The translations under genes and the position numbers were made by a program. From Squalus acanthias (lineage: Eukaryota): 64,000 bases of DNA. How positions within the stretch are numbered: the first letter of the stretch is position 1; every line of letters begins with the position of its first letter. Below are positions 4,916 through 62,946 of this stretch, piece by piece. The stretch covers positions 63,118,001 through 63,182,000 of the forward strand of contig CM059432.1 in NCBI GenBank assembly GCA_030390025.1, in the 5' to 3' direction. Below the pieces are notes generated by a model. That model ran no database searches, had not been told where the DNA came from, and saw nothing but the letters and a program-made list of their open reading frames with translations.

Positions 4916-5600
4916 TGGCAAAGGCAATGCATTTATTAAAATTCTGAATTGATGAGCTAAGACGCACTGAATGACCTTACTCAACTATATCTATCTTGTG
5001 ATTATATGATACGTTGTAATTAAACTTTGCCAGATGACTAATGCAGCATTGTTTAAAGGGAATATTTGGAGCAGTTTCTTCCTGGCTATTTCAGCATGTG
5101 AGTTTATGTGGAACCTATCAGTACCATGACAGTGCCTATTTAAATGTATCAATTAATTTTAATTTCTTAGTCAATTGTTTGTACATATGTATATTAAATA
5201 AATTAAAAGCAAGACTATTTAAGTGAAATTCCCAAACAGTTTTCTATATGCACCTGTTATATTAACTTTAAAAAAAAAAATTTCTACAACAAATTCCACC
5301 ACTTTCCATGTTACACATTTTACCAGACATTCTCATCACTTTATTGGGGGCATGTGCTTTGGACAGGCCTCTGTGGGTAATGATTGAGACAGCTAATCCG
5401 GGAAAAATAATTGCTAGAAGAAGCATTACCAGTACTGGGCCGCTCCAGACTAGATCTCAGGCCGTTCCAAAATGCTGACTCCCATTAATGTGAATGGAGC
5501 TCTTCTGAGGCAGTCCCAGTAATCTACACCCCCAGAGTGGTTTTGAAGCATACATACCAACAATCAGCATTTCAGACTGACACTCAGTGTTTTACATTAA

Positions 5601-10089: not shown

Positions 10090-10205
10090 TTTAACAAAAT
10101 AACTGCTGGAAATGTGAAATATAAACAAAAAATATTGGAAATACGGAAGCACCTGTGGGGAAAATAGACCAGTTAATATTTTAGGTGTAGGTCTTTCGTC
10201 AGAAT
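10090..10205 (-). mobile_element. Degenerate Penelope-like pseudo-LTR remnant
   Basis: Reverse complement resembles ttctgacgaa...ttaact...tttccagc of 13296-13410. Confidence 0.5.
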
Positions 10206-11294: not shown

Positions 11295-11669
11295 CAGAGG
11301 TTCCCAAACTGGGGGGGCTGACAAAGATATCAGGGGGTCGCAAGGAGGACCGGCTGGACAAGGAGAGCCACCGATGCAACCTAGCATAGTCAGGGAAGGT
11401 GTATCAAAAGTGTAAATTTTTTTAACTTTTAAAGAAACTAAGCAGATTTAAGTTTAAATTCAAAGATAAAGTACACACTGATGCAAGCTGACATAGGCCG
11501 ATGTCAGCACAGTGCGGATTGTTTGAATTCCTGCTGATTTCTAAAGCTGGATCAATTATATCTGCTTCTGGTGCACTGTAATCGGTAATATGTTGTGATG
11601 TATTATCACACGGTTGGACACATGGTTTGGTATGAGCATGCTTAGTTCGCTCTGGCCTAGTAAAACAAG

Positions 11670-11845
11670 ATGCGGAAATGCCGGTGTTGGACTGGGGTGG
11701 ACAAAATTGAGAGGTCGCACAACACCAGGTTATAGTCCAACAGTTTTATTTGAAATCACAAGCTTTCGGAGCTTACTACTCCTTCGTCGACCCGACGAAG
11801 GAGTAGTAAGCTCCGAAAGCTTGTGATTTCAAATAAAACTGTTGG
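11670..11845. mobile_element. Fold-back Penelope-type mini-insertion (copy 1)
   Basis: 54-bp inverted arms 11736-11789 / 11793-11846; TSD AGTAAAACAAG (11659-11669, 11846-11856). Confidence 0.8.
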
Positions 11846-11880
11846 AGTAAAACAAGCACATGGACTAGCAACTCATCGTG

Positions 11881-13426
11881 CCTTTTCGTGGGATATGTGG
11901 AACACTCTTTGTTCCAGTCCTACTCGGGTCCCCTCCCTCACCTCTTTTTGCGGTACATTGATGACTGTATCGGTGCCATTTCCTGCTCTCGCCCTGAACT
12001 AGACAATTTCATTCACTTTGCCTCCAATTTCCACCCTTCCCTCACCTTCACATGGTCCATCTCCGACTTTTCCCTTCCCTTCCTCGACTTCTCCGTCTCC
12101 ATCTCTGGGGATAGGTTATTGACCAACATTCACTACAAGCCCACTGACTCCCACAGCTACCTGGACTACACTTCCTCCCACCCCGCCTCCTGTAAGGACT
12201 CTATTCCCTTCTCCCAGTTTCTCCGTCTCCGCCGCATCTGCTCCGACGATGCCACCTTCCATACCAGTGCTTCCGACATGTCTTCCTTTTTCCTCAACCG
12301 AGGATTCCCCTCTACCGTGGTTGACACAGCCCTCGACCGGGTCCGTTCTATCTCCTGCACTTCTGCCCTCACCCCTGCCCCTCCCTCCCGAACCACGATA
12401 GAGTTCCCCTTGGCCTCACCTTTCACCCCACCAGCCTCCACATTCAACGGATCATCCTCCACCATTTCCGCCACCTCCAGCGTGATCCCACCACCAAACG
12501 TATCTTCCCCTCACCTCCCCTTTCAGCATTCCGTAGGGACTGCTCCCTCCGAGACACCCTAGTCCACTCCTCTATCACCCCCAGCACCCCTTCCCCTTTG
12601 CCCGGCACCTTCCCGTGCAAGCGCAGGAGATGCAACACCTGCCCTTATACCTCCCCCCTTCCCACTGTCCAGGGCCCCAAACACCCCTTCCAGGTGAAAC
12701 AGTGATTTACTTGTACTTCTTGCAATTTAGTATACTGTATTCGCTGCTCACGATGTGGTCTCCTCTACACTGGGGAGACCAAACGCAGATTGGGTGACCG
12801 CTTTGCGGAACACCTCCGTTCAGTCCATAAGGGGGACCCCGAGCTCCTGGTGGCTTGTCATTTTAATTCACCGCTCCACGCCCACTCAGACCTCACCGTC
12901 CTCGGCCTCTTGCATTGTTCCACGGAGGCTCAGCGTAAGCTCGAGGAACAGCACCTCATCTTCGATTAGGCACTCTACAGCCCTCTGGACTCAACATAGA
13001 GTTCAACAATTTCAGATCATAACCTCGGCCCCTATCATTTTTATCCCCCCTTTTGGTTTGTGCCTTTTCCCTTTTTTTTCTCTCTCTCCCACACGGCAGC
13101 TGTCTTTCATCCTGCCAGCGCATTTCACACTTCTGAGCCATCTTTTGTTTCTTAACCTGTCCTGTTACCATCTCGTCTTGCCTTGAGCATCTCTTAATGT
13201 CTCTACTTATCACAGACCTCCCCTTTTGTTCTTTTATTCCCTCCCCCAGCCTCCAAACTTGCTTTTTCATCTGTTTCATTTCCTGCTTTTTTCTCAGTTC
13301 TGACGAAGGGTCTTTGACCTGAAATGTTAACTCTGTTTCTCTCTCCACGGATGTTGCCTGGCCTGCTGAGTTTTTCCAGCGCTTTCTGTTGTTATTTCAG
13401 TTTTCCAGCATCCGCAGTATTTTGCT
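11881..13426 (+). mobile_element. 5'-truncated, frameshifted Penelope-like (Neptune-type) element in the Gypsy 5' LTR
   Basis: RYIDD RT motif, highly similar to 61490-63010; TSD ATCGTG (11875-11880, 13427-13432). Confidence 0.92.
13296..13332 (+). ncRNA. Minimal hammerhead-ribozyme-like motif in Penelope pLTR
   Basis: AGTT-CTGACGA-A-GGGTC TTT GACCT-GAAA-TGTT-AACT. Confidence 0.6.
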
Positions 13427-13728: not shown

Positions 13729-16700
13729 ATGGCCGCGTCTATGGGATTCATCGGAATGCTCGGCATGTATGACCAAGCTCGCGAACCATTCAGTTCTTAC
13801 ATTGAGCAGATGGAGATGTATTTTAAGGCCAATAACATTATTGAGATCGAAGGTGCAGATGAGAATGTTCAAGCTCAAAATAAAGTAACTCGTGAATGTA
13901 AAAAGCAATTTTTCTAATGGAGATCGGGCCAGATGTCTACGGAATGTTGACAAACCTACTCACGCCAGGGAAAGCAAAGGATGTGTAGTTTTGAAAACAT
14001 TGTCGAGAAACTCGAGGACCATTTCGACCCTTCTCTTCTTAAGCCATTAGAAATAGCAGAGAGCTATAAGTTTGGTACCAGAAACCAAAAACAAAGTGAA
14101 ACCATCAAGGAGTACATTGTAGCTCTTAAGAATCCACTTTGGTAGAAAAAACAGAAAGGCAGAGTATTTCCTAAATGGTGAAAGATTGGGGAATGCAGAT
14201 GCTCAAAGGGACCTGGGTGTCCTTGTACATGAGTCACTGAAAGTGAATGTGCAGGTGCAGCAAACCATTAGGAAGGCAAATGGTATGCTGGCCTTCATTA
14301 CAAGAGGATTTGAGTACAGGAGTAAAGAAATCTTACTTCAATTATATAGGGCCTTGGTGAGACCACACCTGGAGTACTGTGTACAATTTTGGTCTCCTTA
14401 CATAAGGAAGGATATACTTGCCATAGAGGGAGTGCAACAAAGGTTCATGAGATTGATTCCTGGGATGGCGGGACTGTCGTATGAGAAGAGATTGAGTAAA
14501 CAAGGCCTGTATTCTCTTGAATTCAGAAGAATGAGAGGGGATCTCATTGAAGCATACAAAATTATTACAGGGCTTGATAGGGTGGATGCTGGGAGAATGT
14601 TTCCCTTGGCTGGGTAGTCTAGAACCAGGGGCCACAGCCTCAGGATAAAGGGTAGGCCATTCAGGACTGAGATGAGAAGAAATTTCTTCACACAGAGGAA
14701 GGTGAATCTTTGGAATTCTCTATCTCAGAGGGCTGTGGAGGCTCAGTCATTGGGTATATTCAAAACTGAAGTCGATAGATTTCTGACTAGTAAGAGCATC
14801 AAGGGATATGGCGATAGGGCCGGTGAATAGAGTTGAGGCAGAAGATCAGCCATGATCTCATTGAATGGCGGAGCAGGCTCGAAGGGCCGAATGGCCTACT
14901 CCTGCTCCTATTTCTTATGTTCTTATGTTCTTAACCTGTCTTTGCATTGTAACTTCGGCACATTTTTGGATCGTGTGTTGCAAGCTACGTTTATGTGTGG
15001 ACTAGTGGATGAGCGCACACAGTCCAAATTACTGAACACTCCGAACCTAACGTTAGACATAGCATGCAAAATTGCCCCATCTATGGATTGGTGTCTAAGA
15101 ATGCAAGGGAGCTTTGTCCAACTCAAGTGACTAGTGCAACTGAGGTCTACAGTCACAAAAACCACCGCCGAACCTAAAACTGTGAGACTGGGTCAAAAGC
15201 ATGTCGGTGAGAGCAGTTCAGTGAATTGTTATCGCTGCAATGGAAATCACTCACCACAGTTCTACCGATATAGAAATGCGAAGTGTTTTCACTGCTAGAA
15301 GCAAGGCCATATTTCAACAGTTTGCAGAGCTAGACCAAAAGCAGGAAGTAAGAACCATTCTAGTGGCAATGCAAAGCAGCGACAACAAAAGGGAAGAATT
15401 CACAATATTGAAGAACGGGGCACCTACAGTATCTATGCCACTAGCGGCAACATCAGCAGTCATGAGAAAGACTTCCGTACAAAACTTTTGATCAATGATC
15501 AATATATTGATATGTGTATCGACACAGTGGTGGACTGCTTTATCATGAGTAAGGACACATATGAGAGTAAGTTGAATCAAGCACCACTTACAAAGAGAAC
15601 CGCAGAGTTAAAAACCTACTCCGGAGAAATCCTAGAGACATGTGGACAAATGGAATGTACAGTTCAGTACAATGGCCAGTCAGTAAAGCTGCCTATTATT
15701 GTAGCGAGCTACAACAACAGGCCAACCCTCATGGGCAAAGACTAGTTGAGAAAGTTAAAACTAGACTGGAAAAACATCTTCAGTGTAGATGCTTCAAAGA
15801 AGCGACTCGACACAATGCTGAACAAGTATAAAAGCATGTTCTCAGACAGTTATGAGGGCATCACTGGGTATGACGCACATATCCGCATCAAGTCCAACGC
15901 GAAGCCTGTCTATTGTAAGGTAAGGCCGGTCCCCTATGCGTTGAAAAATCAGGTGAAGGAAGAGCTAGAGAAACTGAGAGAGAACAGAGTGCTAGTAAAA
16001 ACTGAGAAAAGTGAATGGGCTACCCCGATTGTGGTAGTCCCCAAAGCAGACAAAACTGTATGCTTGTGCGGTGACTACAAAGTTACTATCAACTAAGCAG
16101 TTGACGATGAGCAGTACCTGTTACCTACATCACAAGATTTGTATGCAGCACTCTCTGGGATGAAAGTTTTCTCCAAGCTTGACCTGTCGCACGCTTACGC
16201 TCAGCTGAATGCTGACAAAGAGAGTCAACAGTATCACCATCAACACACACAAGGGACTGTATTCATACACCAAGCTGCCATATGGTGTAAAGTCCTCCCC
16301 CAAAATCTTCTAGGCTACAATGGATAAGATTTTGCAAGGAATTCCAAATTGCTTATGCAATCAAGATGATGTACTGATCGCAACAAGCAGTGAGGAAGAA
16401 GATCTAGAAGAGTTAGATATAGTGCTTCAGAGGTTGAATTCCCACAATGCCAAATTGAAAAGGAGCAAATGTGCTTTTGTGCAGCCTAAGGTTGTGTACC
16501 TTGGTCTGAAAGTTGATGCAAATGGCTTGCAACCAGTTAAGGAAAAGGTTGATGCTGTCATCAATGCTCCAAAGCCACAGAACGTGTATGAGTTAAGATC
16601 TTTCCTTGGAATGGTCCAGTACTATGCACGTTTCTTACCTGAGTTAGCGACCAGGTTAGCTCCATTGCACGAGCTCCTCAAGAAGGATGTCCAGTGGAAG

Positions 16701-17537
16701 TGGACAAAAACACAACAGGAAGCTTACGACGCTCGTAAGAGAAGTCTCTCTAGCGATGCTCTACTTGTGCACTAGGACACAAAGCGTAACTTAAGTTAGT
16801 GTGTGATACTTCTAGCAATGGTGTGGGAGCTATCATAAGCCATGTAATGAATGATGGCCAAGAGAAACCAATCGTGTTTGCATCACGAACCCTCACAAAG
16901 AGCGAAAGAAACTACGTGCAAATTGAAAAGGAGGCACTCGCCAGTGTTTGGAATCAAGAAATTCCAACAGTTCCTGATAGGTAGAAAGTTTACTCTGATA
17001 ACCGATCACAAACTGCTCCTAGCAATATTGGGGCCCAAATCTGCCATCCCTGCAATGGCCGCAGCAAGAATGCAACATTGGGCAGTGTTGTTGTCACAAT
17101 ATAACTACATGATTGAATATCACACTTCAAAGCAAAACGCAATCGCAGATGCCTTGTCCAGGTTGCCACATGAGGACTCGTGTGTTGGGAGTGAAGGTGA
17201 GATTTTCACACTAGATGCAGTTGACAAAGACTTTCCCGTGAATACAACTGAGATTGCAAATGAGACTCAAAAGGACTCAGTACTGAAAAGAGTGTATGAA
17301 AACACCTTGAATGGATGGACTGATCAGTGTCTGGACACAGAGTTAAAACCATTCCATAACCGTCGTACTGAATTGTCTAGTGAGCAAAGTTGTATCAAGT
17401 GGGGAAACAGAGTGGTGGTACCTACTTCTTTGAGTTCGGAACAAAAAAAAAACAGCCCGAAAACTGGTTCAACACCAAAACCATCAGTAAGAAGATCAAG
17501 AAGGCTCTGCAAACCTGTTATTAAACTGGATTTGTAG
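13729..17537 (+). pseudogene. Gypsy gag-pol pseudogene (gag, protease, RT, RNase H)
   Basis: SEWATPIVVVPK..LCGDYK, FSKLDLSHAY, NQDDVLI, LRSFLGMVQYY, CDTSSNGVGA, FTLITDHK, ADALSRLP; many stops and frameshifts. Confidence 0.9.
14131..14932 (+). mobile_element. CR1 3' fragment inserted in Gypsy gag
   Basis: ORF 14186-14617 (RDLGV...LVRPHLEYCVQFWSP), TTCTTATG-repeat tail; gag reads through ALK|NLSLHCNFG across it. Confidence 0.92.
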
Positions 17538-18220
17538 TTCATTTGTAGGATTTGTAGTTCATTTAAAAGAAAAAAGCCAGGAGTTTTTGTTATGTGATAC
17601 ATGTAATGCTGGGAAAAGTGTGACCATAGTTTTGTTGTATTTGAGAGGGGAATATGTACATTTTTTTAAAGGGGAAAGCAGTGTAATATATTATCACATG
17701 GTTTGTTACATGATTTAGTATGAGCATGTTCAGTTCATTTTGGCTTAGTAAAGCAAGCTCATGAACTAGCAACTCATCCTGTCTGTCCTTCATTTGTTCA
17801 ACCCATATATATTACATCTGTTGTTTGTGCCGAAGTTCTTGCTCAAGATAGCATGAAACCAAACAAACTAAAATGCCACTTGGAGACCAAATATCCTGCC
17901 CTCAAAGATAAACCACAATATTTCAACTGAAAGGACAGATGAAGGTAATCGAAGAAGTTTGAATACTGTTTTGTAGTAAATTTTGGCAAGAATCTGTGAA
18001 TTCAGGGAGGAGCGCCGTATGTTTTTGATCGACTCTGTATCACTACTTCACCATCATTTCCTCAACCAATGCTTCCAGCTTTTACTGGACTCTTTGGCTG
18101 ACAAATTTAACAAGCTCAAAGAACTTACCCTTTCTTTGCAAGGTAAGAACTATAACCTTTTCATCAGGCACAAAGAACTACAGAGCTTTGCCAAACCTAG
18201 CTATGTGCTGCAAGACAATA

Positions 18221-27277: not shown

Positions 27278-28863
27278 TGAATTCTCTATCACCACTGGTA
27301 CGTGGCAGTGTGTTCTCTATCACCACTGGTGCCAGCATGCATTGGAATAAATAAATTTCAGCCCATGATGTCAGTGAACATGAAACAAATTGCTCACCAT
27401 TACCCTTTAATCCAGCTGCAACCTTTGTGGAGGAAAAGAAGATTGTGTAGAAACAATAAAGAACTCTTTGGATACACAAACAACTTGATGGAGAAGACTC
27501 AGAGGTCCTGTTAAACCACCAGTGTCAAACAGTCCACATGAATTAATTTTGACTGACACCTGAGTAAAGTGAATCATATTATTTTTAAACTGTTGCCAAG
27601 TTGTTTAATGTTCAAAGCTGAAACCATCCCATGTTCTGACTGAACTGTTTTTTGTAACAGAGTTCCGCAGCATTTAACACTGCAGAAAGGAAGGGAACTG
27701 GGGACCATTTTCCACTCGAGCTCAAGCTGCTGCTCACAGCAGGCAACTAAGGAGAATTATGAAATTTAGAAATAAAATTTAAATTTCTTGTTTTTTTTTA
27801 ATGAAGAGCAGCTATCACCCTGGCACTTCATCAAGCCAAACCATCGTCATAATTTATGAACTTTCCATTAGGCTCCAACAACAGTTGAAGAAAATTTACA
27901 AACCTCCATCTAATCACTGGAGATTTACCAACAGTATTTCACCCTGGGATTTATTCCAGGAAACTTTCCCAATTGCACGGAGTTTCTCATAACCTTAAGC
28001 CATTTCATAGCTCAACCAATTTAGGAAAGCCTCCAACAACACAAGTTTACACAACAGTATGTGTTGTACAGAGCCTAATGGGATCCATGTTATTGACTAA
28101 TGCAGTGTTCATTATAACACCCTCTTTCTTAGCAGTAAATTCCTCATTTAAGTCTCATTTTCCTGTGGAATGTGCAGCATATTACACTGACCCTGCATTA
28201 AGAGTAATTTCATAATCACTGGCATTACTTAAATGCGTGATAGCTGTTACCAAGCAGTAAAAAAAAATAGTAAGTGGCTTAACATTTCCTGTCAGCAGTG
28301 AGATTCTTAACATAATAATAATGGTGTTTATGGTTGAGATTACTTGCTTAGAACATTTAGTTATTATAAATAAATCTGTTTAAAGTCTCAATTTTCACAT
28401 ATTAATCAAATAGAATAATGAATAATGGAGTGATTACGAGGCTGTAATCTATTCGAGGGGTTCAGCCAGCAAAGTAACAGTTAAGCTCACATAATTTATT
28501 TTTAATGCTTTTATGATTTTGATCAGGTGAGGGTTGTTCAATGGAAGAATTTAAATTTTGTATGGTATCAGCATCAAACAGGTCAAGTATATAATAGATG
28601 CAGATCATGGCTCCTTCTGCTCTCTCCCAACAATTCGCCTTGGCTTCAACATCAGGAGAGCAATGCCTATTGCACAATTTTCCATTCCTCACAGTCAGCC
28701 TGAGTACGATTGACAATTTAGTGGCAGTTAGCACACAATCAGGAGCCATTCTGAGGTCTGGATTGTGACTCTCACTTGTATAGAACCCTTTCAGCCAGCA
28801 GACAGATGAGAGTTTAATGGCATCATTCAGGCCTGGTTTTGAACCCAGGTCCCAGAAATAAAA

Positions 28864-29183
28864 ATGAGAAGTCGCACAACACCAGGTTATAGTCCAACAG
28901 ATTTATTTAATTTTACAAGCTTTCGGAGCGGTTCGCTCCTTCCTCAGGTAAGTTAGCAGTGAGAGAATCTCCCAGAATTCACAATTTAAACACAGACAAA
29001 ATCTTTTGTCTGTGTTTAAATTATGAATTCTGGGAGATTCTCTCACTGCTAACTTACCTGAGGAAGGAGCGAACCGCTCCGAAAGCTTGTAAAATTAAAT
29101 AAATCTGTTGGACTATAACCTGGTGTTGTGCGACTTCTCATTTTTGTCCACCCCAGTCCAACGCCGGCATCTCCACATCATGA
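28864..29183. mobile_element. Fold-back Penelope-type mini-insertion (copy 2)
   Basis: 142-bp inverted arms 28860-29001 / 29004-29145 with one mismatch; TSD CCAGAAATAAAA (28852-28863, 29184-29195). Confidence 0.85.
29054..29092 (+). ncRNA. Minimal hammerhead-like motif, mirrored on the minus strand in the other arm
   Basis: TTAC-CTGAGGA-A-GGAGC GAACC GCTCC-GAAA-GCTT-GTAA. Confidence 0.6.
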
Positions 29184-29267
29184 CCAGAAATAAAAGGCTA
29201 GCCTCTGGGTGGCTTATAATCATGAATCTAAACACTTATTATTGATAGAACATGCACTTTGTGTTAG

Positions 29268-29725
29268 TTGTGGCTCCGTTGGTAGCTCTCTCGCCTGAGT
29301 CAGAAGGTTGTGCGTTCAAGTCCCACTCCAGAGACTTGAGCACAAATATCTAGGAAGATGCTCCAGTGTAGTGCTGAGGGAGTGCTGCATTGTCAGAGGT
29401 GCCATCTTTCGGATGAAACGTTAAACTGAGGCCCCATCTGTTCTCTCAGGTGAACGTAAAAGATCCTATGGCACTATTTCGAAGAAGAGCAAGGGAGTTA
29501 TCCCCAGTGTCCTGGCCAATATTTATCCCTCAATCAAAATCTAAAACAGATAATCTGGTCATTTTCACATTGCTGTTTGTGGGAGCTTGCTGTGCACAGA
29601 TTGGTTGTGGCATTTCCTACATTACAACAGTGACTGCACTTCAAAAAGTACTTCATTGGCTGTAAAGCACTTTGGGACATCCAGTGTTCATGAAAGGCGC
29701 TATATAAATGTAAGTCTTTCTTTCC
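29268..29725 (+). mobile_element. Full-length tRNA-derived SINE, Deu-domain/SacSINE1-like
   Basis: A box TGGCTCCGTTGG, B box GTTCAAGTC, central Deu-like domain, 3' end AAGGCGCTATATAAAT shared with the L2 at 27240. Confidence 0.75.
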
Positions 29726-30796: not shown

Positions 30797-31575
30797 ATCG
30801 TAGAATCATAGAATAGTACAGCACAGAGGAAGGCCATTTGGCCCATCGAGTCTGCGCCGGCTCTTTCAAAGAGCAATCCAGTTAGTCCCACTCCCCCGCT
30901 CTTTCCCCATATCTGTGCAATTTTTTCTCCTTCAAGTATTTATCCAATTCCCTTTTGAAGGCTGCTATTGAATCTGTATCCACCACCCTATCAGGCGGTG
31001 CATTCCAAAACCTAAACCCTCATTGCGTAAAAAGGTGTTTCCTCATGTCACCTCTGGTTCTTTTGCCATTCACCTTAAATCTCTGTCCTCTGGTTATTGG
31101 CCCCTCAGCTATTGGAAACAGTTTTTCTTTATTTACTTTGTCTAGACCCCTCATGATTTTGAACACCTCTATCAAATCTCCTCTCAACCTTCTCTCCTCG
31201 AAGGAGAACAACCCCAGCTTCTCCAGTCTATCCACGTAACTGAAATCCCTCATCCCTGGAACCATTCTTGTAAATCTTTTCTGTACCCGCTCCAAAACCT
31301 TCACGTCCTTCCTAAAGTGCGGTGCCCAGAATTGGACACAATACTCCAGCTGGGGCCGAACTAGTGTTTTATAAAGGTTTAGCATAACTTCTTGGCTTTT
31401 GTACTCTCTGCCTCTATTTATAAAGCCCAGGATCCCATATGCTTTATTAACTGCTTTGTTAACCTGTCCTGCCACCTTCAAAGATTTGTGTACAAACATC
31501 CCCGGGTCTCTCTGTTCTTGCACCCCCTTTCAAATTGTACCATTTAGTGTGCATGGTCTTTCCCTATTCTTCTTG
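30797..31575 (-). mobile_element. CR1 3' fragment
   Basis: ORF 31020-31523 LVRPQLEYCVQFWAPHF. Confidence 0.92.
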
Positions 31576-32620: not shown

Positions 32621-33860
32621 TTACATACATTGTGATTTTTAAAATTATTTTTCTTTTCTTTTGCATTGCCCCTCCCTACCCCAGATTTTCCCTGTTCCTC
32701 TTCTGGAGGGCACACAGTTCCATGAGCTCTGGCAGGTTATTTAACCGTAAGGGAGCTTCACAGTTGAGCTTGTTCCTGTCTTTACCCAATGTCCATATAT
32801 ACGCACAAGTGCAGACACACAAACACACGTGTAATCAGGAGGGGAGCCCTGGTTGATTGGCTGATTTTTTTCTCCCATAGCCCAGTAGGACTCAGGGCAC
32901 TTGTAGCAGCCCTACCCCTGCTCCGGCTGAGATCAGCTAACTCAGCACAGAACCGGAACTTGACCTAGACCGTCTGATTTGTATGGCTCAGTTGGGGTGG
33001 GTATTATATTTCACATGGCCCGATCAGTTCATTTGTATATGACACAAGAGGTAACGTAGCAAATCTATACCTGGATCTGTGATCAATAACTTAAGGTAAA
33101 CGTTTTAATGTATTTCAGAACATAAAATCATGAGGGCTGATTTTAATCCCCATGCCAGAAGAGAATGGAAGTTCTGGTGGGGTTTATAATAGAGGTAGCA
33201 TCCTGACCTCCAGCTTGAAGCCACACTTATGCTGGACGGTATTTTAACTCCCAGGTTGCAGGAGATGTGTAAGGTCCTTGTTTCAGGCAGGTGAGGGCCT
33301 CTTTAAAATGCAAACGCTGGGGTCTGATTACGTAATTTAGGTCCCATGCCATTTTAACGTGGTCCCACGTTCGGCACCAGTGGAACATCGGAAGAAACAT
33401 AGGGACAGGAGTAGGCCATCCACCACTCAAACCTGTTCCACCTCACCAGAATCACTGAGTGCCAAGGAGCAGCTTTAATTTTTAAAGGTTTCCCTGTGGG
33501 CCAGGAGGTGCAGGAGTCCAATATATCATAGTTTCTGCTCTTTTAGGGTGAAGTCATGCAATGCACACAAGAGATGAATGCCAGAGGGGAGTTGAGAGTA
33601 ACTGTTCTTGACATCAAGGCAGCATTTGACCGAGTATGGCACCAGGGAGCACTAATGAAACAGAGGTCACTGGGAATCAAGGGGTAATTCTTCCAATGGT
33701 TGCAGTTAATACTTACACAAAGGAATACGTTTGTGGGCGTCCCCTAGGCCCGCTGCTCCTTAGTGCTCAGTGGTTCTGGTGAGGTGGAACAGGCTCGAGG
33801 GGTGAATGGCCTACTCCTGTTCCTGTGTTTCTTCCTATGTTCCCCCGGCCACCGAACGTG

Positions 33861-35836
33861 TTTTTTTAAATTCGTGTATGGGATGTGGGCGTTGCTGGCA
33901 AGGCCAGCATTTATTACCCCTCCCTAATTGCCCTTGAGAAGGTGGTGGTGAGCCACCTTCTTGAACTGCTGCAGTCCGTGTGGTGAAGGTACTCCCACAG
34001 TGCTGTTAGGTAGGGAGTTCCAGGATTTTGACCCAGCGACGATGAAGGATCGGGGATCTACTTCTAAGTCAGGATGGTGTGTGACTTGGAGGGGAACTTG
34101 GAGGTGATGGTGTTCCCATGCACCTGCTGTCCTTGTCCTTCTAGGTGGAAGAGGTCGCGGGTTTGGGAGGTGCTGCCAAAGAAGCCTTGCCGAGTTGCTG
34201 CAGTACATCTTGTAGATGGTACACACTGCAGTCACGGTACACCGGTGGTGGAGGGAGTGAATGTTTAAGGTGGTGGATGGGGTGCCAATCAAGCAGGCTG
34301 CTTTGTCCTGGATGGTGTCGAGCTTCTTGAGTGTTGTTGGAGCTGCACTCATCCAGTCAAGTGGAGAGTATTCCATCACACTCCTTACTTGCGCCTTGTA
34401 GATGGTGGAACGGCTTTGGGGAGTCAGGAGGTGAGACACTCGCCACAGGATACCCAGCCTCTGACCTGCTCTTGTTGCCACAGTATCTATGTGGCTGCTC
34501 CAGTTAAGTTTCTGGTCAATGGTGACCCCCAGGATGTTGATGGTGGGGGATTCGGCGATGGTAATGCCGTTGAATGTCAAGGGGCGGTGGTTAGACTCTC
34601 GCTTGTTGGAGATTGCCATTGCCTGGCACTTCTGTGGCGCGAATGTTACTTGCCACTTATCAGCCCAAGCCTGAAAGTCGTCCAGGTCTTGTTGCATGTG
34701 GGCATGGACTTCTTCATTTTCTGAGGAGTTATGAATGGCGCTGAACACTGTGCAGTCATCAGCGAACATTCCCATTTCTGACCTTATGTTGGAGGGAAGG
34801 TCATTGATGAAGCAGCTGAAGTTGGTTGGGCCTAGGACACTGCCCTGAGGAACTCCTGCAATGATGTCCCGGGGCTGTGATGATTGACCTTCAACCACCA
34901 CAACCATCTTCCTTTGTGCTAGGTATGATTCCAGCCAGTGGAGCGTTTTCCCCCCGATTCCCATTGACTTCAGTTTTACTAGGGCTCCTTGATGCCACAC
35001 TCGGTCAAATGCTGCCTTGATGTCAAGGGCAGTCACTCTCACCTCACCTCTGGAATTCAACTCTTTTGTCCATGTTTGGACCAAGGCAGTTATGAGGTCA
35101 GGAGCCGAGTGGTCTTGGCAGAACCCAAACTGGGCATCAGTGAGCAGGTTATTGGTGAGTAAGTGCCACTTGATACCACTGTCGATGACACCTTCCATCA
35201 CTTTGCTGATGATTGAGAGTAGACTGATGGGCCGGTAATTGGCTGGGTTGGATTTGTCCTGCTTTTTGTGGACAGGACATACCTGGGCAGTTTTCCACAT
35301 TGTCGGGTAGGTGCCAGTGTTATAGCTGTACTGGAACAGTTTGGCTAGAGGCGTGGCCAGTTCTGGAGCACAGATTCTTCAGCACGACAACCGGGATGTT
35401 GTTGGGGCCCATAGCCTTTGCTGTATCCAGTGCACTCAGCCTTTTCTTGATATCACGTGGAGTGAATTGAATTGGCTGAAGACTGGCTTCTGTGATGGTG
35501 GGGACCTCAGGAAGAGTCCGAGATGGGTCATCCACTCGGCACTTCTGGCTGAAGATGTTTGCGAACGCTTCAGCCTTGTCTTTTGCACTCATGTGCTGGG
35601 ATCCGCCATCACTGAGGATTGGGATGTTCATGGAACTTCCTCCTCCCATTAGTTGTTTAATTGTCCAACATCATTCAGGACTGCAGAGTTTTGATCTGAC
35701 CCGTTGGTTGTTGGATCGCTTAGCTCTGTCTATAGCATGCTGCTTCCGCTGTTTAGCACGTATGTAGACCTGTGTTGTAGCTTCACCAGGTTGGCACTTC
35801 AATTTTAGGTGTGCCTGGTGATTCTCCTGGCATGCT
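33861..35836 (-). mobile_element. LINE family B (CR1/L2 group), 5'-truncated, with RT
   Basis: 458-aa ORF 33924-35300: NYRPISLLS, LDIKAAFDRV, GVPQGSVLGP, FADD. Confidence 0.93.
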
Positions 35837-42200: not shown

Positions 42201-44019
42201 TTATACCATAAAGTATCCTTACTTAATAAACTCCTCCTTTCTGCCATCACCACTATGGCTGTTGTGTTAAAACAGAGAAAATGTGCATGAGTTGTGGTTC
42301 TGCTCTGTTGTGAAGGCTATGGGGACTGACACTGCTCTGATTAATTAAGATCCACTGTATCTACAGATATTGTTTTGGTTCCATCCAGACACCAATACAA
42401 ATTCATTGAACGTTCTTCAGCCTCCGAAGCACTTCACTGACTCTAGTAGATATTTCAGTTGGCTCCAGAACTGCTTCATTGGACTTTATTAATCACGTTC
42501 TAAATATGCTTAATTAATATTCCACTAGATGCATGTCTCTAAATCTAATCTGGTTTTTAGGGTTTTATGATGTTACAGAGGACAATATTTTAAAAATGAT
42601 GTAGGAATCTTCAGTCTGAAAAAAATCATATTGGCAGAATAAAACAAATTCTCTGCTAAAAACCATACCTCATGGAATAAAAAAAACCCTGAAGTACACA
42701 CGTAAGCATCCGAAGAGGGTAAATGTGCAAGGTGTCACCTGCGCTCAGGACAAATCCTCTATTTTTTCAGGAGACATTGTGAGTAAAATTCTTCTTCAGA
42801 GATACAGAGTAGGCAAAGGTTCAAGGCACGAATGATAATATTTTCCATGGATTCCACTCTATACAGTTACACATTGAGTGGGAATTTTTTTCTGTAACTG
42901 TAACTATCTGCTGCTTGGGTTTCAGTGTTATTCTATCCTATTTAGCAGCTCAAACACTCTAACTAGCTATATCATTTTCATATGCCAGAAATATTCTCAA
43001 AGCATATTTAAGAGAGGGAAAAATGGGCAGCTCTTGAAGGTTCAGCTTTCTACAGGCTGTGTTTTTGTGCAAGTTTTCCTTGGTGGCAGTGAACAAAGTG
43101 TTCCACTGTGGAGTAGGTTGTATGCCGGCAGACACAGTGTCTGTACAGGGAGTTCCTGTCCCTGGCCCAAACCCACAGACCCTCAGCAACGAAGGACAAG
43201 GTCATCCATTGCTTTTTCTGCTTCCCACTGGAGCCCACTTCTCTCTGCTCTGGTGGAATGTGCGAGTACATAAAGGGGCACTTTCACATCACAAGTGAAG
43301 AACTCCGATCCAAGACTCCACGAGACAAATAAAAGGTTTTATTTTTCTTCTTTCAGCAAAACATTTGTAAAACTAATTTCGAAATTTTCTGCTGCACGGT
43401 CAAATGCAACTTTCTTTTACGTTGAGAATTTGGGGTGACTGGTTTACTTATGTTTGAATCATTCCCTGTTTGCTCCTTTTCCTCAGGGGGTCATTAGTGC
43501 TGAAAAACTTCACATAATGATTGCTGCAGTGGGGTTATTTGGTGTTGAGTACAATTCCAAAGAGCTACTGAAAATAGCAAACAGTGTTCTTCCCTGTACT
43601 TCTATGTTCTAATAACATTTCGAAATGTCTTGATCAGTATGTAAAGCTCTTTAACTACATTACTGTGGTGCTATCTCACACTAGTTTACTATCAAGTAAA
43701 ATCTTAGTGCTGGAGCCTGCAGGGAAGTAAACAATGTTTAAGAAGCTCACACATTTGTGCTTAATTACTGGAGTGAATGTGACTCCAAACAGGATATAAT
43801 AACACTGCATCTCATTGCAAGTGCTTACTTCTACAACTTTATTTATCCTGTCAAGGCTCCTGGCTACCACATACAGATTCCCTGTCTCACAAGTCTGCCC
43901 CTCTACTGCACAGCTAGTGGAGATTTCAAGGATTTCAGAATATAACTGGCAATAATTTATCCCAAATTTGCACTTGCAATAATTGATAAAAGGTAGCTGA
44001 ACTGATTAACATAAAAAGA

Positions 44020-44106
44020 AAAAAATGCAAATACTGGAAATCTGAAATAAATGTATAAAATGCTAGAAATGCACAGCAGGTCAGTCAGCATCTGTAAAGA
44101 GATTAT
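44020..44106. mobile_element. Old inverted Penelope-pLTR remnant, left part; right part at 50101-50210
   Basis: Left part is roughly the reverse complement of the pLTR tail; right part has CTGATGAAGGGCACACGCCTGAAAC. Confidence 0.6.
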
Positions 44107-44856
44107 GATGGCCCGGAATTTACGGTCAGCGGCGAAACAAAGGCATTCGTTGCTGGCCCCTAAGTAAGCTTTGCACAAAGATCTCATGATCTCTGTGTTG
44201 AGAATTTCGGGTTTTCCGACGCGTATTTGATAGAATCATAGAATCACAGAATGGTTACAGCACAGTAGGAGGCCATTCGGCCCGTCGAGCCCGTGCCGGC
44301 TCTCTGCAAGAGCACTTCAGCTAGTCCCACTCCCCTGCCCTTTCCCCGTAGCCCTGCAATTTGTTTTCCTTCAGGTAATTATCCAATTCCCTTTTGAAAG
44401 CCATGATTGAATCTGCCTCCACCACCCTCTCAGGCAGTGCATTCCAGATCATAACCACTTGCTGTGTAAAAAAGATTTTCCTCATGTTGCTTTTGAGTCT
44501 TCTGCCAATCACCTTAAATCTGTGTCCTCTGGTTCTTGACCCTTCCGCCAATGGGAACAGTTTCTCTCTACTCTGTCTAGACTCCTCATGATTTTGAACA
44601 CATCTCTCAAATCTCCTCTCAACCTTCTCTGCTCTAAGGAGAACAAACCCAGCTTCTCCAGTCTATTCACGTATCTAAAGTCCCTCATCCCTGGAACCAT
44701 TCTTGTAAATCTTTTCTGCACCTTCTCTAAGGCCGTCACACTCTTCCTAAAGTGCAGTGCTGGGAATTGGATACAATACTCCATTGAGGCCGAACCAGTG
44801 TTTTATAAATGTTCATCATAACTTCCTTGCTTTTGTACTCTGCCTCTATTTATGAA

Positions 44857-45081
44857 ATTGAGAGGTCGCACAACACCAGGTTATAGTCCAACAGTTTTAT
44901 TTGAAATCACAAGCTTTCGGAGCTATCGATTGCCCCTTCCTCAGGTGAAGTAAATAGATACAGAATCGCCAAAGCTCCGAAAGCTTGTGATTTCAAATAA
45001 AACTGTTGGACTATAACCTGGTGTTGTGCGACCTCTCAATTTTGTCCACCCCAGTCCAACACCGGCATCTCCGCATCATGA
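44857..45081. mobile_element. Fold-back Penelope-type mini-insertion (copy 3)
   Basis: 70-bp arms 44855-44924 / 44973-45042; TSD CCTCTATTTATGAA (44843-44856, 45082-45095). Confidence 0.85.
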
Positions 45082-45550
45082 CCTCTATTTATGAAGCCCA
45101 GGATCCCACTTTCTCAACCTGCCCTGCCTCCTTCAACGATTTTTGCACATATACCCCCAGGTCTCTCTGTTCATGCACCCCCTTTAGAATTGTACCCTTT
45201 AGTTTATATTGCCTCTCCTCGTTCTTCCTACCAAAATGCATCACTTCGCACTTTTCTGCATTAAATTTCATATGCCACATGTCCGCCCATTCCACCAGCC
45301 TGTCTTTGTCCTCTTGAAGTCTATCACTATGCTCCTCACTGTTCACTATACTTTCAAGTTTTGTGTCATCTGCAAATTTTGAAATTGTGCCCTGTGCACC
45401 CAAGTCCAAGTCATTAATATATATCAAGAAAAACAGTGGTCCTAGTACCAACCCCTGGGGAACACCACTGTATACCTTCCTCCAGTCCGAAAAACAACCG
45501 TTCACCACTACTCTCTGTTTCCTGTCACTTAGCCAATTTCGTATCCATGC

Positions 45551-46271
45551 TTGACCCTGAAATAAGCTTCCGACCACATATCCACAGCATAACAAAGACC
45601 GCCTACTTCCACCTCCGTAACATCTACCGTCTCCGCCCTTGCCTCAGCTCATCCGCTGCTGAAACCCTCACCCATTTCTTTGTTACCTCGAGACTTGGCT
45701 ATTCCAACGCACTCCTGGCTGGCCTCCCACATTCAACCCTACGTAAACTTGAGATCATCCAAAACTCGGCTGCCCATGTCCTAACTCGCACCAAGTCCCG
45801 TTCGCCCATCACCCCTGTGCTCGCTGACCTACATTGGCTCCTGGTTAAGCAGCACCTCGATTTCAAAATTCTCATCTTTGTTTTCAAATCCCTCCATGGC
45901 CTCGCCCCTCCCTATCTCTGTAATCTCCTTCAGCCCCACAACTCCCCGAGATATCTGCGCTCCTCTAATTCTGCCCTCTTGAGGTTCCCTGATTATAATT
46001 GCTCAACCATTGGTGGCCGTGCCTTCTGATGCCTAGGCCCTAAGCTCTGGAATTCCCTGCCTAAACCTCTCCGCCTCTCTACCTCTCTTTCCTCCTTTAA
46101 GACGCTTCTTAAAACCTACCTCTTTGACCAAGCTTTTGGTCACCAACCCTAATTTATCCTTATGTGGCTCGGTGTCAAATTTTTGTCTTCTAATACTCCT
46201 GTGCAGCGCCTTGGGACGTTTTACTACGTTAAAGGCGCTACATAAATACAAGTTGTTGTTGTTGTTGTTGC
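45551..46271 (+). mobile_element. L2 3' fragment inserted in the CR1 RT
   Basis: AYFHLRNI...TSRLGYSNALLAG...LHWL; (TTG)n tail. Confidence 0.92.
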
Positions 46272-49200
46272 TGCCGCTGTCCCTTTTATTCCATGGGCTT
46301 CAACTTTGCTGACAAGCCTATTATGTGGCATTTTATCAAACGCCTTTTGGAAGTCCATGTACACCACATCAACAGCATTGCTCTCATCAACCCTCTCTGT
46401 TACCTCCACAAAAAACTCAATCAAGTTAGTTAAACCTGATTTGCCTTTGACAAATCCATGCAGGCTTTCCTTAATTAATCTACACTTATCCAAGTGACTG
46501 TTAATTTTGTCCCTGATAATCGTTTCTAAAAGCTTCCCCACTACCGAGGTTAAACTGACTGGTCTGTAGTTGCTGGGTTTATCCTTACACCCTTTTTTGA
46601 ACAAGGATGTAACATTCGCAATTCTCCAGTCCTCTGGTACCACCCCCGTATCTAAGGAGGATTGGAAGATTATGGCCAGTACCTCCGCAATTTCCACCCT
46701 TACCTCCCTCAGCATCCTAGGATGCATCCCATCTGGTCCTCGTGACTTATCTACTTTAAGTACAGCCAGCCTTTCCAGTACCTCCTCTTTATCAAATTTT
46801 ATCTGATCCAGTAACTCCACTACCTCCTCTTTCACTATGACTTTGGCAGCATCTTCTTCCTTGGTAAAGACAGATGCAAAGTACTCATTTAGTACCTCAG
46901 CCATGCCCTCTGCCTCCATGCTTAGGTCTCCTTTTTGGTCCCTAATCGGCCCCACCCCTCTTACTACCCGTTTATTATTTATATGCCTGTGGAAGACTTT
47001 TGGATTCCCTTTTATGTTAGCTGCCAGTCTATTCTCATACTCTCTCTTTGCCCCTCTATTTCCTTTTTCACTTCTCCTCTGAACTATCTAATTTCAACCT
47101 TGATCTCACTTGTATTCTCAACCTGACATCTGTCATATGCCCCCTTTTTCTGCTTCACTTTACTCTCAATCTCTTTCATCATCCAGGGAGCTCTGGCTTT
47201 AGTTGCTCTATCTTTCCCCCTCGTGCGAATGCACCTCGACTGTACCTGAACCATCCCCCTTTGAAGGCAGCCCATTGTTCGATTACAGTTTTGCCTGCAA
47301 ATCTTTGATTCCAGTTTACCTGGGCCAGATCCGTTCTCAACCCACTGAAATCGGCCTTCCTCCAATTAAGTATTTTTTTACTTTAGATTGCTCCCTGTCC
47401 TTTTCCATAGCTAATCGAAACCTTATGATACTATGATCACTTTTCCCTAAATGTTCCCTTACTGACACTTGCTCCACTTGACCCATCTCATTCCCCAGAA
47501 CCAGATCCAGCAATGCCTCCTTCCTCATTGGGCCAGAAACGTACTGATCCAGAAAGTTCTCCTGAACACACTTCAGAACTTTTTTCCCCTCTCTACCCTT
47601 TACACTATTACTATCCCAGTCTATATTAGGATAATTGAAGTCCCCCATTTTCACTACTCTATAGTTCTTGCACCTCTCTGTAATATCTCTGCAAATTTGC
47701 TCCTCTATATCCTTCCCACTAGTTGGTGGCCTATAGAATACACCTAGTAGTGTAATGGCACCTCTATTGTTTCTTAACTCTAACCAAATAGATTCTGTCC
47801 TTGACCCCTCCAGGACATCCTCTCTCTCCAGCACTGTAATATTCACCTTAATCAATACTGCCACCCCACCTCCTTTCTTTCCTTCCCTATCTTTCCTGAA
47901 CACCTTATATCCAGGAACATTTAGTACCCAATCCTGCCCTTTTTTGAGCCAGGCCTCCATTATCGCCACAACATCATATTCCCATGTGGCTATTTGCTCC
48001 TGCAGCTCACCAACCTTATTTACCACGCTTCGTGCGTTTGCACACATGCACTGTAAACCTATCTTAGACCTTCTTGTATTCTCTTTTAGTCTGCTCCCAC
48101 CTAATATCGTACTATTTCTTACTCTAGTGCTATCTGTCTCTCCCAATCCTTTGTGCACCTTGTTTCTCCTTTCTAATGCTAAATCCTGGTGCCCATCCCC
48201 CTGCCAAATTAGCTTAAACCCTCCCCAACAGCACTAGCAAACCTCCCCACGAGGATATTGGTCCCGGCTCTGTTGAGGTGCAACCCATTTGGCCTGTACA
48301 GGTCCCACCTCCCCCAGAACTGGTCCCAATGTCCCAGGAATCTAAAGCCCTCCCTCCTGCACCATCTCTCCAGCCACGCATTCATCTGCTCCATCCTCCT
48401 ATTTCTATATTCACCAGCTCATGGCACCGGGAGTAATCTGGAGATTACTACTCTAGAGGTCCTGCTTTTTAACCTCTTTCCTAGCTCCTTAAAAACTACC
48501 TGCAGGACCTCATCCCTCTTACTACCTGTGTCGTTGATACCGATATGGACCAAGACCTCTGGCTCTTCACCCTCCTCCCTCAGAATGTTCTGGAGCCGCT
48601 CAGTGACATCCTTGACCCTGGCACCAGGGAGGTAACATACCATCCTGGAGTCACGTCTACGGCCGCAGAAACGCCTGTCTGTTCCCCTAACTATTGAATC
48701 TCCTATCACTATTGCTTTCCCGATTTTCCTCCTCCCCCTTTGTACAGCTGAGCCAGCCGTGGTGCTGTGGACTTGGCTCTGGCTGTACTCCCCAGAGGAA
48801 CCATTGCCCTCACCCATATTCGGTACTGAATACCGGTTATAGAGTGAGGTGCACTCAAGAGACTCCTGCACTACTTGCCTGGTCCTCCTTGTCTGTCTGC
48901 TGGTCACCCATTCCCTCTCTGCCTGCACACTCTTACGCTGCGGGGTGACCACCTCCTGAAACGTAGCTCTCAGCCTCACGGATGCACCGCAGTGACGCCA
49001 GCTGCTGCTCAAGCTCCGAAACCTAGGCGCTTGAGCTTCTTCAGCCGACAGTACTTCCTGCACATGTGGTTGGCCAGGACACGGGAAGCCTACTGGAGTT
49101 CCCACATGGCACAAGATGTGCATTCCATGGGACTGAGGTGCCCTGCCATGCCTCTATTTAATAGACTATTAACTAACTTAACAGATATAAACTCAAGACT

Positions 49201-52200
49201 TAAAAAAAACAATCACCAGCTACTCACCAATTTTATTTTTTCTTTTCAGCTCCTTCCCTTGTGCTGATGTCACTTACCTTGCTCCCTGACGTTCGCGCTC
49301 CCTCCAAGCTCCGGGCTCTCCGGCCGCTCCTCTCACTCTCTCCTCCTTCCACCTCTGCTCCGAATTCCCACTCTCTCCAAATTCGCAACTCTCGCCCTCT
49401 GTTTAGAAGCACTCTGTTTAGGATCAGTCTGCGCAGACCACTCTCAAATCAATAGAAGTTAATGAGGATTCCCAACGAAGAGCTGCTGTGACATCAACAA
49501 GCTGTCTAAGCAGCCAATCAAAATGCAGAATTCTCACAGACAGCGAACCAGGAAGTAGATAAGGTCCTAAAATTCTAACATTTTAAAAATGTTAGAGAGA
49601 ACAAAACAAAGATTGGGGCTTTCACATGGGGAAAAGGCAAACCTGAAATAAAGATGGACAAACTTATTTTTTTTTTTAAGTTTCTTAAAAATTGTATTTT
49701 TTATTAAAATGAATAAATTTGACATTGCACAAAATTAAAATTAGTTTTTCAGGGCCCTAACCTTTGCTTTGCAGTCACTACACTGTTAAAACCCCAGTTA
49801 CACCTAATCCCTTTCGGTCTAACTTTTAATGAGGTATTTAACAGCGTAATTACTACAGAATAGCTGAAGTTTTCATCAGTTTCCATGATTTGAGAGATTA
49901 CACTGATTGCCGGCTCTGTAGGTTGGTGGGGGGGTGGGGGCACAGCCTGTGTCGGAGCAGTGAACGACAGACCGCAACTTCAGGATTTCAGCATTAGGCT
50001 GTGTATGCGCTAAATCCTGAAGTTGCCGTCAGTTTCAAAGGTGAAATGATGGTGAATGCTGCCAGTTCGCCATCATCTGGACCGCAAATTTTGGGCCGAT
50101 ATATCGGGCAAATCTGATGAAGGGCACACGCCTGAAACATGTCTTTTCTCTTTACAAATGCTTACTGGCTTGCAATGTATTACCAACAATTTCTATTTTT
50201 ACTTCAAATTTATGAACAGACATTGGTTCTAATAGTCATAATAGAATAATGCACGGACTCAAAAGTTTTCTCTCATATTGTAGGCATATTGCAGGTATAA
50301 TTTCACACCACTACCTCCTTTAGAGGTGTGCAAATGGGCAGCACTGAACTATATTCTCACCAAGTTATACTGCCTGCATGCACCACTCCCTGTTTAGAGG
50401 AAAGCAGAACTCTGCCCATGTGTGCTTTAACAGAGCTCTACCCACCAGCCCCTGATCGCTGGCGGATATGTCTAATATTTGAAAAGAGTTGATGGGTCTA
50501 CTAGTTACTTTCCAGATTAGAAAGTTAAAGGTGGACAGCTGTTGTTTTCAAGCATTAAAGCTCAAAAAATTGACTTTTGTGCATGTGTGAAGGAGCCATT
50601 TAAGTTATTTCAATGGAAAAATATTGTATTTTCAAATTGGATGAGTTTGAAGACTGGTGAAGTGATATGGAGTATCTTTGGGAGAAAGAAACTTTAACAG
50701 CTAAGTCCAAAGGCCTGGCCTGATCAAATCAGATAACCTCAAATTAGCCAGTTAATAGGCACCAGTAAACTTAATTTTATTAATTTATTTTCAATACAGC
50801 AGCAGTGGGAGCTGTGCGATGAGCCCAGCAGTGAAGAGGCATTAGATTAAGCAGCAACCTTCAGGAAAGCACTCATAGAATAACAAACATTAAACATTAA
50901 CAGATAACAATGATTAAACTATAATATAGATTAGACTCTTAATTCTGTGTAATTTTGCTTTCAAACTGCTAAATAATTCCTTGCTATATCTTCCTACATG
51001 AAAACAGTGACTGCACTGCAAAGTAATTCATTGTATGGAAAACACTTTGGGATATTTTTGAGAGACGTGATAAGGCCCAATATAAATGCACATTCTTTCT
51101 TTATTGTGAAACACTCATCAATGTTATCCTCCAGTTGGCTATGTCATAATCACAAAGAACCGTAACACTGGCCCCGAGGAGTCCTCCTCAATCACCCACC
51201 CCCTTCACCCATTACATCAAGTGAGTAATTTTTTTAAGAATGACAAAAAGCAGTTATATAATAGAAAATATAACATATAGCTAATGATTACTGGCAGAAT
51301 TTCAGGGTTCAAATGATATGCATAGCCACATAGATTGTGAACTCCTCAGGACACTACAAGTAGATTGCACTGGTTAGTTACTCTCAACCATTGATTATTC
51401 TACAGATAATACACAAATTTAATGAGCTACACGCACAAGCACATTTTTTCCTTTCTTCTTACACCAGTTATTTTCCTCTCCCCTTGTGCTCTCCTGAGGG
51501 CATTTCCAGCATGAGTTGATGCATTGTGATCAGGAGTGGGATCCCTGGCCGATTTTCTACACTTTTAACTCGGGGTCACTAAAGCCAATTGTCGTGGCCC
51601 TGCCTCAGCCCAGATTGAAATCAATCTGTACCGGGGATTCAACCTGGAATCTTCCTGGTCTGTATGACTCAGTTATCCCCTGCCTTAACCAGCTGAGTTA
51701 TCGGGGAGCTTGGACTAAAATATTTACATGCAGGATATTAGAGCCTAGTCCAATATGTCTGAGTACTGCTCTCTGGTCATAGATAACGTGATAGGGTTGA
51801 TTTTTCAAGTACATGCTACTGGCATGGAGCTTCACCCACTGGCTGCATATATTGTGAAATTATGAGCCCACTCCCCACAATGTTCATCCACTAAAAGAAC
51901 ACATGCAAAATTGTGGAGAGCACAACCTCGATTTCCCAATATGCATTCTTGGTAAGCGTTTGGAAGATCGCCCTAATATTTCAGAATGATATACCCCTCC
52001 AATTTATCTTTACGTTAAGAAACATTTGCATTTACAAAATCTATTTTGTCAAAATAAGAATATCTGCATAAATATGAAGCAAACAGCATGAACTATTTGA
52101 TGGCATAAGCTATTACAAGCTTATGCCATCAAATCACTTCTATATCTTATGCAGGAAATAAATATTTTGAGCATTTCAATAATCTCTGCATTACTACAAT

Positions 52201-62909: not shown

Positions 62910-62946
62910 AGTTCTGATGAAAGGTCATCGACCTGAAACGTTAACT
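62910..62946 (+). ncRNA. Minimal hammerhead-ribozyme-like motif in Penelope pLTR
   Basis: AGTT-CTGATGA-A-AGGTC ATC GACCT-GAAA-CGTT-AACT. Confidence 0.7.

Follow-up and report, generated by a model that had tools for sequence, protein, structure and literature searches.

Hairpin-shaped, hammerhead-bearing insertions in a Squalus acanthias contig are probable truncation products of a Penelope-like element

RESULTS

Three insertions share one layout

Three hairpin-shaped insertions in a 64-kb window (the whole stretch of Squalus acanthias DNA that was analyzed, 64,000 nucleotides) are most likely dead-on-arrival products of an autonomous Penelope-like element (PLE) rather than a separate ORF-less family. 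The insertions, called copies 1, 2, and 3 here, occupy 11670-11845, 28864-29183, and 44857-45081 and are 176, 320, and 225 nt long. We are confident of their identity as PLE truncation products and consider it likely, with somewhat less assurance, that each arose separately, as an extremely 5′-truncated insertion, through the RT and GIY-YIG protein encoded by an autonomous EN+ PLE of an elasmobranch. In the sense of the hammerhead, all three copies read TSD, antisense tail-less 5′-truncated arm, sense 5′-truncated arm, tail, TSD, so that in each an inverted 5′-truncated copy is joined head-to-head to a direct copy. The features are as follows.

11659..11669 (no strand): copy 1 TSD, 11 bp, tail side; empty paralogue at 17682-17784
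11670..11789 (minus): copy 1 direct arm and tail; tail 11670-11702, unpaired part 11670-11735; candidate hammerhead cut at core
11790..11845 (plus): copy 1 inverted arm without tail; takes in the 3-nt loop 11790-11792
11846..11856 (no strand): copy 1 TSD, inverted-arm side
28852..28863 (no strand): copy 2 left TSD, 12 bp; the last 4 nt fit the element too
28864..29003 (minus): copy 2 inverted tail-less 5′-truncated pLTR arm; loop 29002-29003 apparently its antisense continuation (loose ends before 29004)
28913..28951 (minus): copy 2 candidate minimal type I hammerhead, inverted arm
29004..29145 (plus): copy 2 direct 5′-truncated pLTR arm
29054..29092 (plus): copy 2 candidate minimal type I hammerhead, direct arm; predicted cut after 29088
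29146..29183 (plus): copy 2 tail, 38 nt, unpaired; its end lies over an ATG
29184..29195 (no strand): copy 2 right TSD; contig record 32 of run X7 aligns from exactly 29184
44843..44856 (no strand): copy 3 left TSD, 14 bp; empty paralogue at 31290-31548
44857..44974 (minus): copy 3 inverted tail-less arm; paired over 44855-44924, with ~48 nt of unpaired continuation and a possible 2-nt overlap with the direct arm
44907..44948 (minus): copy 3 candidate minimal type I hammerhead, inverted arm only
44973..45042 (plus): copy 3 direct arm; its start falls within hammerhead stem II
45043..45081 (plus): copy 3 unpaired 39-nt tail
45082..45095 (no strand): copy 3 right TSD

The arms pair over 54 bp in copy 1 (11736-11789/11793-11846, 3-nt loop), 142 bp in copy 2 (28860-29001/29004-29145, 2-nt loop), and 70 bp in copy 3 (44855-44924/44973-45042, 48-nt spacer). 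Within copies they are identical at 265 of 266 positions, the sole mismatch being at 28982 in copy 2. The spacer of copy 3 is a continuation of the inverted arm, and copy 3 is therefore asymmetric. Coding sequence is absent from all three. A 17-nt motif of the tail had three exact matches in the window and one further match with three mismatches, versus 0.12 expected by chance, and self-comparison of the window gave no fourth copy. These coordinates, the TSDs, the arm lengths, and the common tail all agree with an earlier note on this DNA. The tail is present at one end only. For the unpaired end, the figure of about 38 nt that the note gives for copies 2 and 3 is right for these two (38 and 39 nt) and does not extend to copy 1, in which a 33-nt tail lies within 66 unpaired nt and the inverted arm starts ~30 nt further in.

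Exact TSDs and empty sites mark real, young insertions

All three insertions are flanked by exact TSDs, at 11659-11669/11846-11856 (11 bp), 28852-28863/29184-29195 (12 bp), and 44843-44856/45082-45095 (14 bp), with an AT content of 71 to 75%. Among random end pairs, an 11-nt direct match was obtained in 94 of 3,000 trials. Two copies have an empty paralogue in which the flanks are joined over one TSD and match the repeat continuously: 17682-17784 for copy 1 (82%) and 31290-31548 for copy 3 (79%). No paralogous empty site of copy 2 was found within the window. For copy 2, a probable empty orthologous site was obtained. A 1,722-nt contig of another organism (run X7, record 32) matches 29184-29271 with 0 differences; its alignment ends exactly at the TSD, without taking in the tail, and ~1,600 nt of contig lie beyond. 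With the record in the orientation that we infer for it, this contig is probably the empty orthologous site of copy 2. That the insertions lie inside older repeats and yet have perfect TSDs and near-identical arms marks them as young.

An assembly artifact was ruled out by the intact TSDs, the empty sites, and an X1 contig (record 8) that crosses the tail-flank junction, X1 being possibly the same sample as the assembly. A MITE was ruled out because one end is an unpaired tail, so that the inverted repeats do not reach both ends, and because the TSDs vary in length and sequence.

The arms carry a candidate minimal hammerhead

A motif in the arms fits a minimal type I hammerhead of the PLE pLTR type, for which cleavage is predicted. 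It has a helix I of 4 bp, an intact core, one unpaired A, a helix II of 5 to 6 bp (6 in copy 2), and a palindromic AGCT in place of helix III. The earlier note had placed minimal hammerheads in these elements; the type is supported, but the complete motif is present in only three of the six arms: the two of copy 2 and the inverted one of copy 3. In copy 1 the truncation falls within the ribozyme, and each arm has a C where the core calls for U; the tail arm of copy 3 begins after the hammerhead core. Variants of stem II differ among all three copies and are the same in both arms of any one copy. Helix cells were paired in 39 of 39 cases with one two-sided change, and 174 of 500 shuffles did as well, so that covariation was not above shuffles. 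Rfam gave 0 matches in the window at the gathering threshold. In public contigs (see below), the sole substitutions listed in the CTGA-N-GA core box fell at the variable N, 29062.

Metazoan PLE minimal type I hammerheads, as described in passages of PMC4209133, likewise have a helix I of 4 bp, a base left unpaired ahead of helix II, a G-C closing pair, palindromic bases replacing helix III, and heterogeneity within a genome. The same passages report pairs of minimal hammerheads on opposite strands, 100 to 700 bp apart, in a paragraph that ascribes most such motifs to truncated PLEs; copy 2, with an opposite-strand pair ~100 bp apart, fits that description. Helix II is different, with 5 to 6 bp here versus 7 to 8 bp in schistosome families, and sharks are not named in those passages.

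The copies are predicted to form hairpins of −108 to −252 kcal/mol, and long dsRNA hairpins are predicted on read-through. If many copies are intronic, the family would be a source of long perfect dsRNA. A stem of the tail with the upstream arm was seen in minimum-energy folds but was not above shuffles (z of −0.16 to −0.86 for four tail-bearing stretches).

Ends recur while fold points differ

Counted from the predicted cut site, the tail arms have their 3′ ends at +95, +95, and +90 and the inverted arms at +53, +54, and +23 (copies 2, 3, and 1, in that order here and below). The inverted arms of copies 2 and 3 thus end within 1 nt of each other, in line with the common end point given in the earlier note; copy 1 has different ends from both on both arms. 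In the 5′ direction, the tail arms reach 85, 14, and 30 nt from the cut site and the inverted arms 87, 64, and 33 nt, and in every copy it is thus the tail-less arm that extends further 5′, although the number (n = 3) is too small for a rule. All three fold points are distinct, again as claimed earlier, and no center 31-mer recurs in the window. By the earlier note's own criterion, a separate fold point in every copy is half of what would make the copies ordinary truncated inversions, the other half being a match to a catalogued Penelope pLTR. The same length and the same center at independent loci, a feature of self-propagating ORF-less palindromic (SINE- or MITE-like) families, were not found in the three copies examined. 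The center of copy 1 has no obvious priming stem, and the loop of copy 3 has a 5-bp stem inside. All four testable junctions overlap the TSD by 1 to 4 nt (8 nt in total; P of about 0.001 to 0.012 under a simple model; tail ends of copies 2 and 3 left out of the score), whereas Frangieh et al. describe priming at a site without homology to the target.

Public contigs reveal an abundant family that continues upstream

Contigs from 4 of 24 candidate sequencing runs (X1, X5, X7, and X14) were aligned to one arm plus flank, 29002-29271; fold points are known from the three copies of the one window. In X1, 13,578 contigs aligned, and summed depth reached 5.9 million on the element versus 9 on the flank. 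Depth is not copy number, but, allowing for overlap of up to ~30-fold, these values suggest tens of thousands of copies or more. In three of the four runs, contigs leave the element for unlike AT-rich sequence mainly at two places ~40 nt apart. Loose ends lie behind 29140 in at least 70 contigs of X1 and at least 54 of X5 and behind 29138 in at least 30 of X7. At the second place, behind 29181/29182, the counts are at least 65 in X1, at least 60 and 46 in X5, at least 38 and 26 in X7, and at least 14 and 10 in X14. Loose ends do not tell an inverted from a direct arm for a tail-less end. The ends are not strictly two, because X5 has a further one at 29150 (at least 27 contigs) and because copy 1 uses other ends on both arms. 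In X14, guessed to be an RNA run, there was no cover past ~29190. Run X7 also contains, over 29057-29182, a diverged form of the element end from a different species; both 3′ ends recur there, and at 80% likeness there is no cover upstream of ~29056.

Upstream of 29004 the common sequence goes on in three X5 and eight X14 contigs (agreement of ~0.8, ~30 nt seen), and copy 2 is therefore truncated from a longer sequence. This continuation opens with two letters that are the reverse complement of the 2-nt loop of copy 2. At the other end, behind 29182, a loose consensus starts with GCT A after the tail ATG in three of the four runs; its agreement is 0.37 to 0.47, and ATG-GCT-A is a weak hint of a possible ORF start at the end of the tail.

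The abundance of the terminal 180 nt, for which an ORF link was not found, and the presence of three copies in 64 kb, all noncoding, would suit a distinct ORF-less palindromic family, in which a fold-back mini-element is transcribed and re-mobilized in trans by a PLE protein in the manner of a SINE or retrozyme. Non-autonomous PLE derivatives do exist (MRC1, in a passage of PMC8557442; retrozymes, in part of 10.64898/2026.07.22.740005), and pLTRs in cis suffice for mobilization in trans according to a section of PMC3846280. The copies themselves, however, make this very unlikely. None of the three centers recurs in the window, the sizes differ, and stem II varies from copy to copy yet is the same in both arms of any one copy. 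Other copies of the family have further sequence upstream of the center of copy 2, and no recurrent joint was present among those listed from the public contigs (palindromes are hard for unitigs to represent, and a single arm served as the reference). The predicted hairpin would moreover bury the ribozyme. The earlier note's suggestion of a distinct ORF-less mobile family is not supported by the fold points, stem II, and the upstream continuation.

We also give little credence to a linear non-autonomous parent, that is, a PLE derivative with pLTR and 3′ UTR but no ORF, which would be mobilized in trans and leave the same truncated inverted products. The missing ORF link and the mere ~30 nt of upstream continuation would allow for it, as would the tandem pLTR-derived retrozymes reported for one chondrichthyan in part of 10.64898/2026.07.22.740005. 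The GCT A after the ATG behind 29182, at the low agreement given above, argues against it, because it would be expected if the tail led into an ORF start, the arrangement of Pen2a (PMC3846280) and PAc (PMC11167929). Head-to-tail tandems were found in none of the three copies. Non-LTR retrozymes, which in the part of 10.64898/2026.07.22.740005 that describes them are, like the copies, noncoding, pLTR related, and hammerhead bearing, consist of units in head-to-tail tandem and have two or more ribozymes on the same strand. The copies were ruled out as such retrozymes because all three are head-to-head with at most one hammerhead per strand.

A two-primer mechanism is modestly favored

Four of six tested or testable features of PLE insertions are present: a head-to-head copy, a tail at one end, a TSD with an empty site, and a minimal hammerhead. 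The Penelope-type origin proposed in the earlier note is supported. For dead-on-arrival products of an autonomous PLE, we lean toward a mechanism with two primers. The PLE protein would cut both strands of AT-rich DNA 11 to 14 nt apart, and each 3′ end would prime cDNA in pLTR RNA, a distal start yielding the tail-bearing arm and a start ~40 nt upstream the tail-less arm. Both cDNAs would probably be copied from the same RNA or source; one template per event is suggested because the arms are identical within a copy while stem II differs between copies. Both cDNAs would stop early. The slightly longer tail-less cDNA would then fold onto itself, or anneal to the other cDNA via 0 to 2 nt of microhomology, and be extended, after which repair would leave, flanked by TSDs, a head-to-head palindrome that has a single tail.

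The idea of stereotyped snap-back products holds insofar as the ends are stereotyped. Simple snap-back of a tail-bearing cDNA does not fit, because it would lengthen the tail-bearing arm, the opposite of what was observed in all three copies. Turning back of the tail-less cDNA fits the short loops, with a second cDNA still needed for the tail. One observation sits poorly with two primers: truncation points no more than 2 to 3 nt apart in two of the three copies are a better fit to self-priming than to two independent stops. Left unaccounted for are the C that copy 1 has in the core of either arm and the lack of an obvious priming stem at its center.

Some weight goes to a single priming event in an insertion of the same identity, in which the palindrome would arise by self-priming on the antisense template (as proposed for such palindromes in a passage of PMC3846280) or by post-insertion fold-back or gene conversion. 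It would explain the near-perfect centers with 2- to 3-nt loops in copies 1 and 2, the near-complete arm identity, which extends to the atypical C in the core of each copy 1 arm, and the 5-bp stem within the loop of copy 3. We nevertheless regard it as a tentative second choice. A single hairpin alone does not restrict the tail to the shorter arm; an intact TSD adjoins each outer end with 1 to 4 nt of overlap, as would be the case for primed ends; and public contigs repeatedly end where the tail-less arm does. The copies are probably dead ends, because read-through RNA would lock the ribozyme and the proximal start site in a long hairpin.

The presumed autonomous partner is absent from the window

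The window has a PLE of its own at 60937-63010, with a 564-codon open frame (RT and GIY-YIG) and its own minimal hammerhead at 62910. The ORF (60937-62631) gave RT and GIY-YIG matches, both below curated cutoffs, and its closest named relatives are from Rhincodon, Chiloscyllium, Hypanus, and Stegostoma (65 to 71% identity), which points to a probable elasmobranch host. From its Cys-rich linker we take this element to be of the Neptune type. A passage of PMC8557442 is consistent with such a linker as a mark of the Neptune clade. The best local match of the fold-back element end to the Neptune-type pLTR is 13 nt, and the element was ruled out as the partner by its different hammerhead and different end. 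The earlier note had likewise found the two pLTRs unlike and the autonomous partner missing from the window, where an RT-GIY-YIG ORF with a matching pLTR is indeed absent. A truncated copy of the window PLE, 89% identical and with a hammerhead variant at 13296, lies at 11879-13395, 33 nt to the right of copy 1. Older fragments resembling the 3′ end of this PLE type (69 to 78% identical) lie at 1436-1630, 44019-44102, and 10104-10144.

DNA pattern scans gave 0 matches in viral contigs, one locus in bacterial genomes (a chance 24-nt match), and 78 loci in metagenome contigs, none beyond a short match. Fourteen of the metagenome contigs (L009, L013, L014, L022, L025, L029, L036, L043, L046, L047, L051, L053, L055, and L073) carry an unrelated short repeat with the 17-nt motif after CAT or TAT and have no match to the element beyond that motif. 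Protein searches for the partner with the open frames over the tail gave two candidates and with the antisense frames of the tail one candidate, none of them scored; a blank here is weak evidence. No match was obtained at an E value of 0.5 between 265 PLE-like proteins and the translated element sequence. It is from anatomy alone that we infer a link to a PLE ORF.

Comparison with known systems

The architecture is not new, and the insertions are real, young, and ordinary in kind. Passages of PMC8557442 give an inverted 5′-truncated copy and a 30- to 40-bp tail as typical of PLEs and treat the formation of these inverted repeats and tails as unresolved. For Pen2a_Av, a section of PMC3846280 describes palindromes at head-to-head junctions, a 31-bp tail, and TSDs of 8 to 10 bp. 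The copies share with these insertions the head-to-head 5′-truncated copy, the junction palindrome, the 30- to 40-nt tail at one end, and the TSD around the whole unit. They differ from them in that the whole unit is 176 to 320 nt and lacks both an ORF and a direct tandem pLTR, and in their TSDs of 11 to 14 bp versus 8 to 10 bp.

The PLE protein of PAc (Poseidon of Anolis carolinensis) is described in passages of PMC11167929 as cutting and extending both target strands, favoring AT-rich DNA, and being a predicted dimer; RT starts at two internal sites in vitro, the interval between them being the tail, and inverted products are not explained there. Like PAc, the copies have a pLTR hammerhead, two recurrent 3′ ends bounding an AC-rich tail, and AT-rich targets. 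In PAc, however, the ORF begins within the hammerhead and reverse transcription 111 to 118 nt into the ORF, according to the same passages, whereas the only candidate ATG here would lie at the tail end, ~92 nt past the cut site. No published account of this shark family was found in the literature outside subscription journals, supplements, Repbase, and Dfam.

In L1 inversions the parts come from a single poly(A)-ended RNA and do not overlap, whereas the inverted part here duplicates the same 3′ sequence. The copies share with L1 twin priming (5′ inversions, named in a passage of 10.1101/2024.12.14.628481) an inverted 5′ segment between TSDs and, under the proposed two-primer mechanism, the priming of cDNA by both target ends.

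In a broader interpretation that we consider unlikely, the mini-palindromes would be a record, made in vivo and on a genome scale, of the way in which PLEs form inverted ends. A dimer would use two start sites on a single RNA to prime two cDNAs, with the tail-less cDNA always longer and turning back and with priming via 1 to 4 nt of target microhomology; in its boldest form, some palindromes would by now be a self-propagating ORF-less family. If the record reading is true, it could be tested from sequence alone, given tens of thousands of short copies. In an abundant young family whose junctions are readable in one short stretch, arm asymmetry, fold points, and microhomology could be counted.

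Other features of the window

Several further repeats were observed. A broken LINE with RT and APE-type endonuclease frames lies on the minus strand at 45092-49153, and copy 3 lies in its 3′ part. A further RT frame was present at 33924-35378, and RT and RNase H-like frames at 16314-17537 are probably the remnant of an LTR retrotransposon. The element at 33366-33860 has inverted ends of ~109 bp that are 85% complementary and is possibly MITE-like. Short imperfect palindromes of 27 to 55 bp, unrelated to the element, lie at 52095-52134, 54396-54441, 55304-55350, and 63246-63336. A 30-bp tandem array at ~2390-4980 has open frames of 759 to 844 codons on both strands, one of which was scanned and gave no Pfam match.
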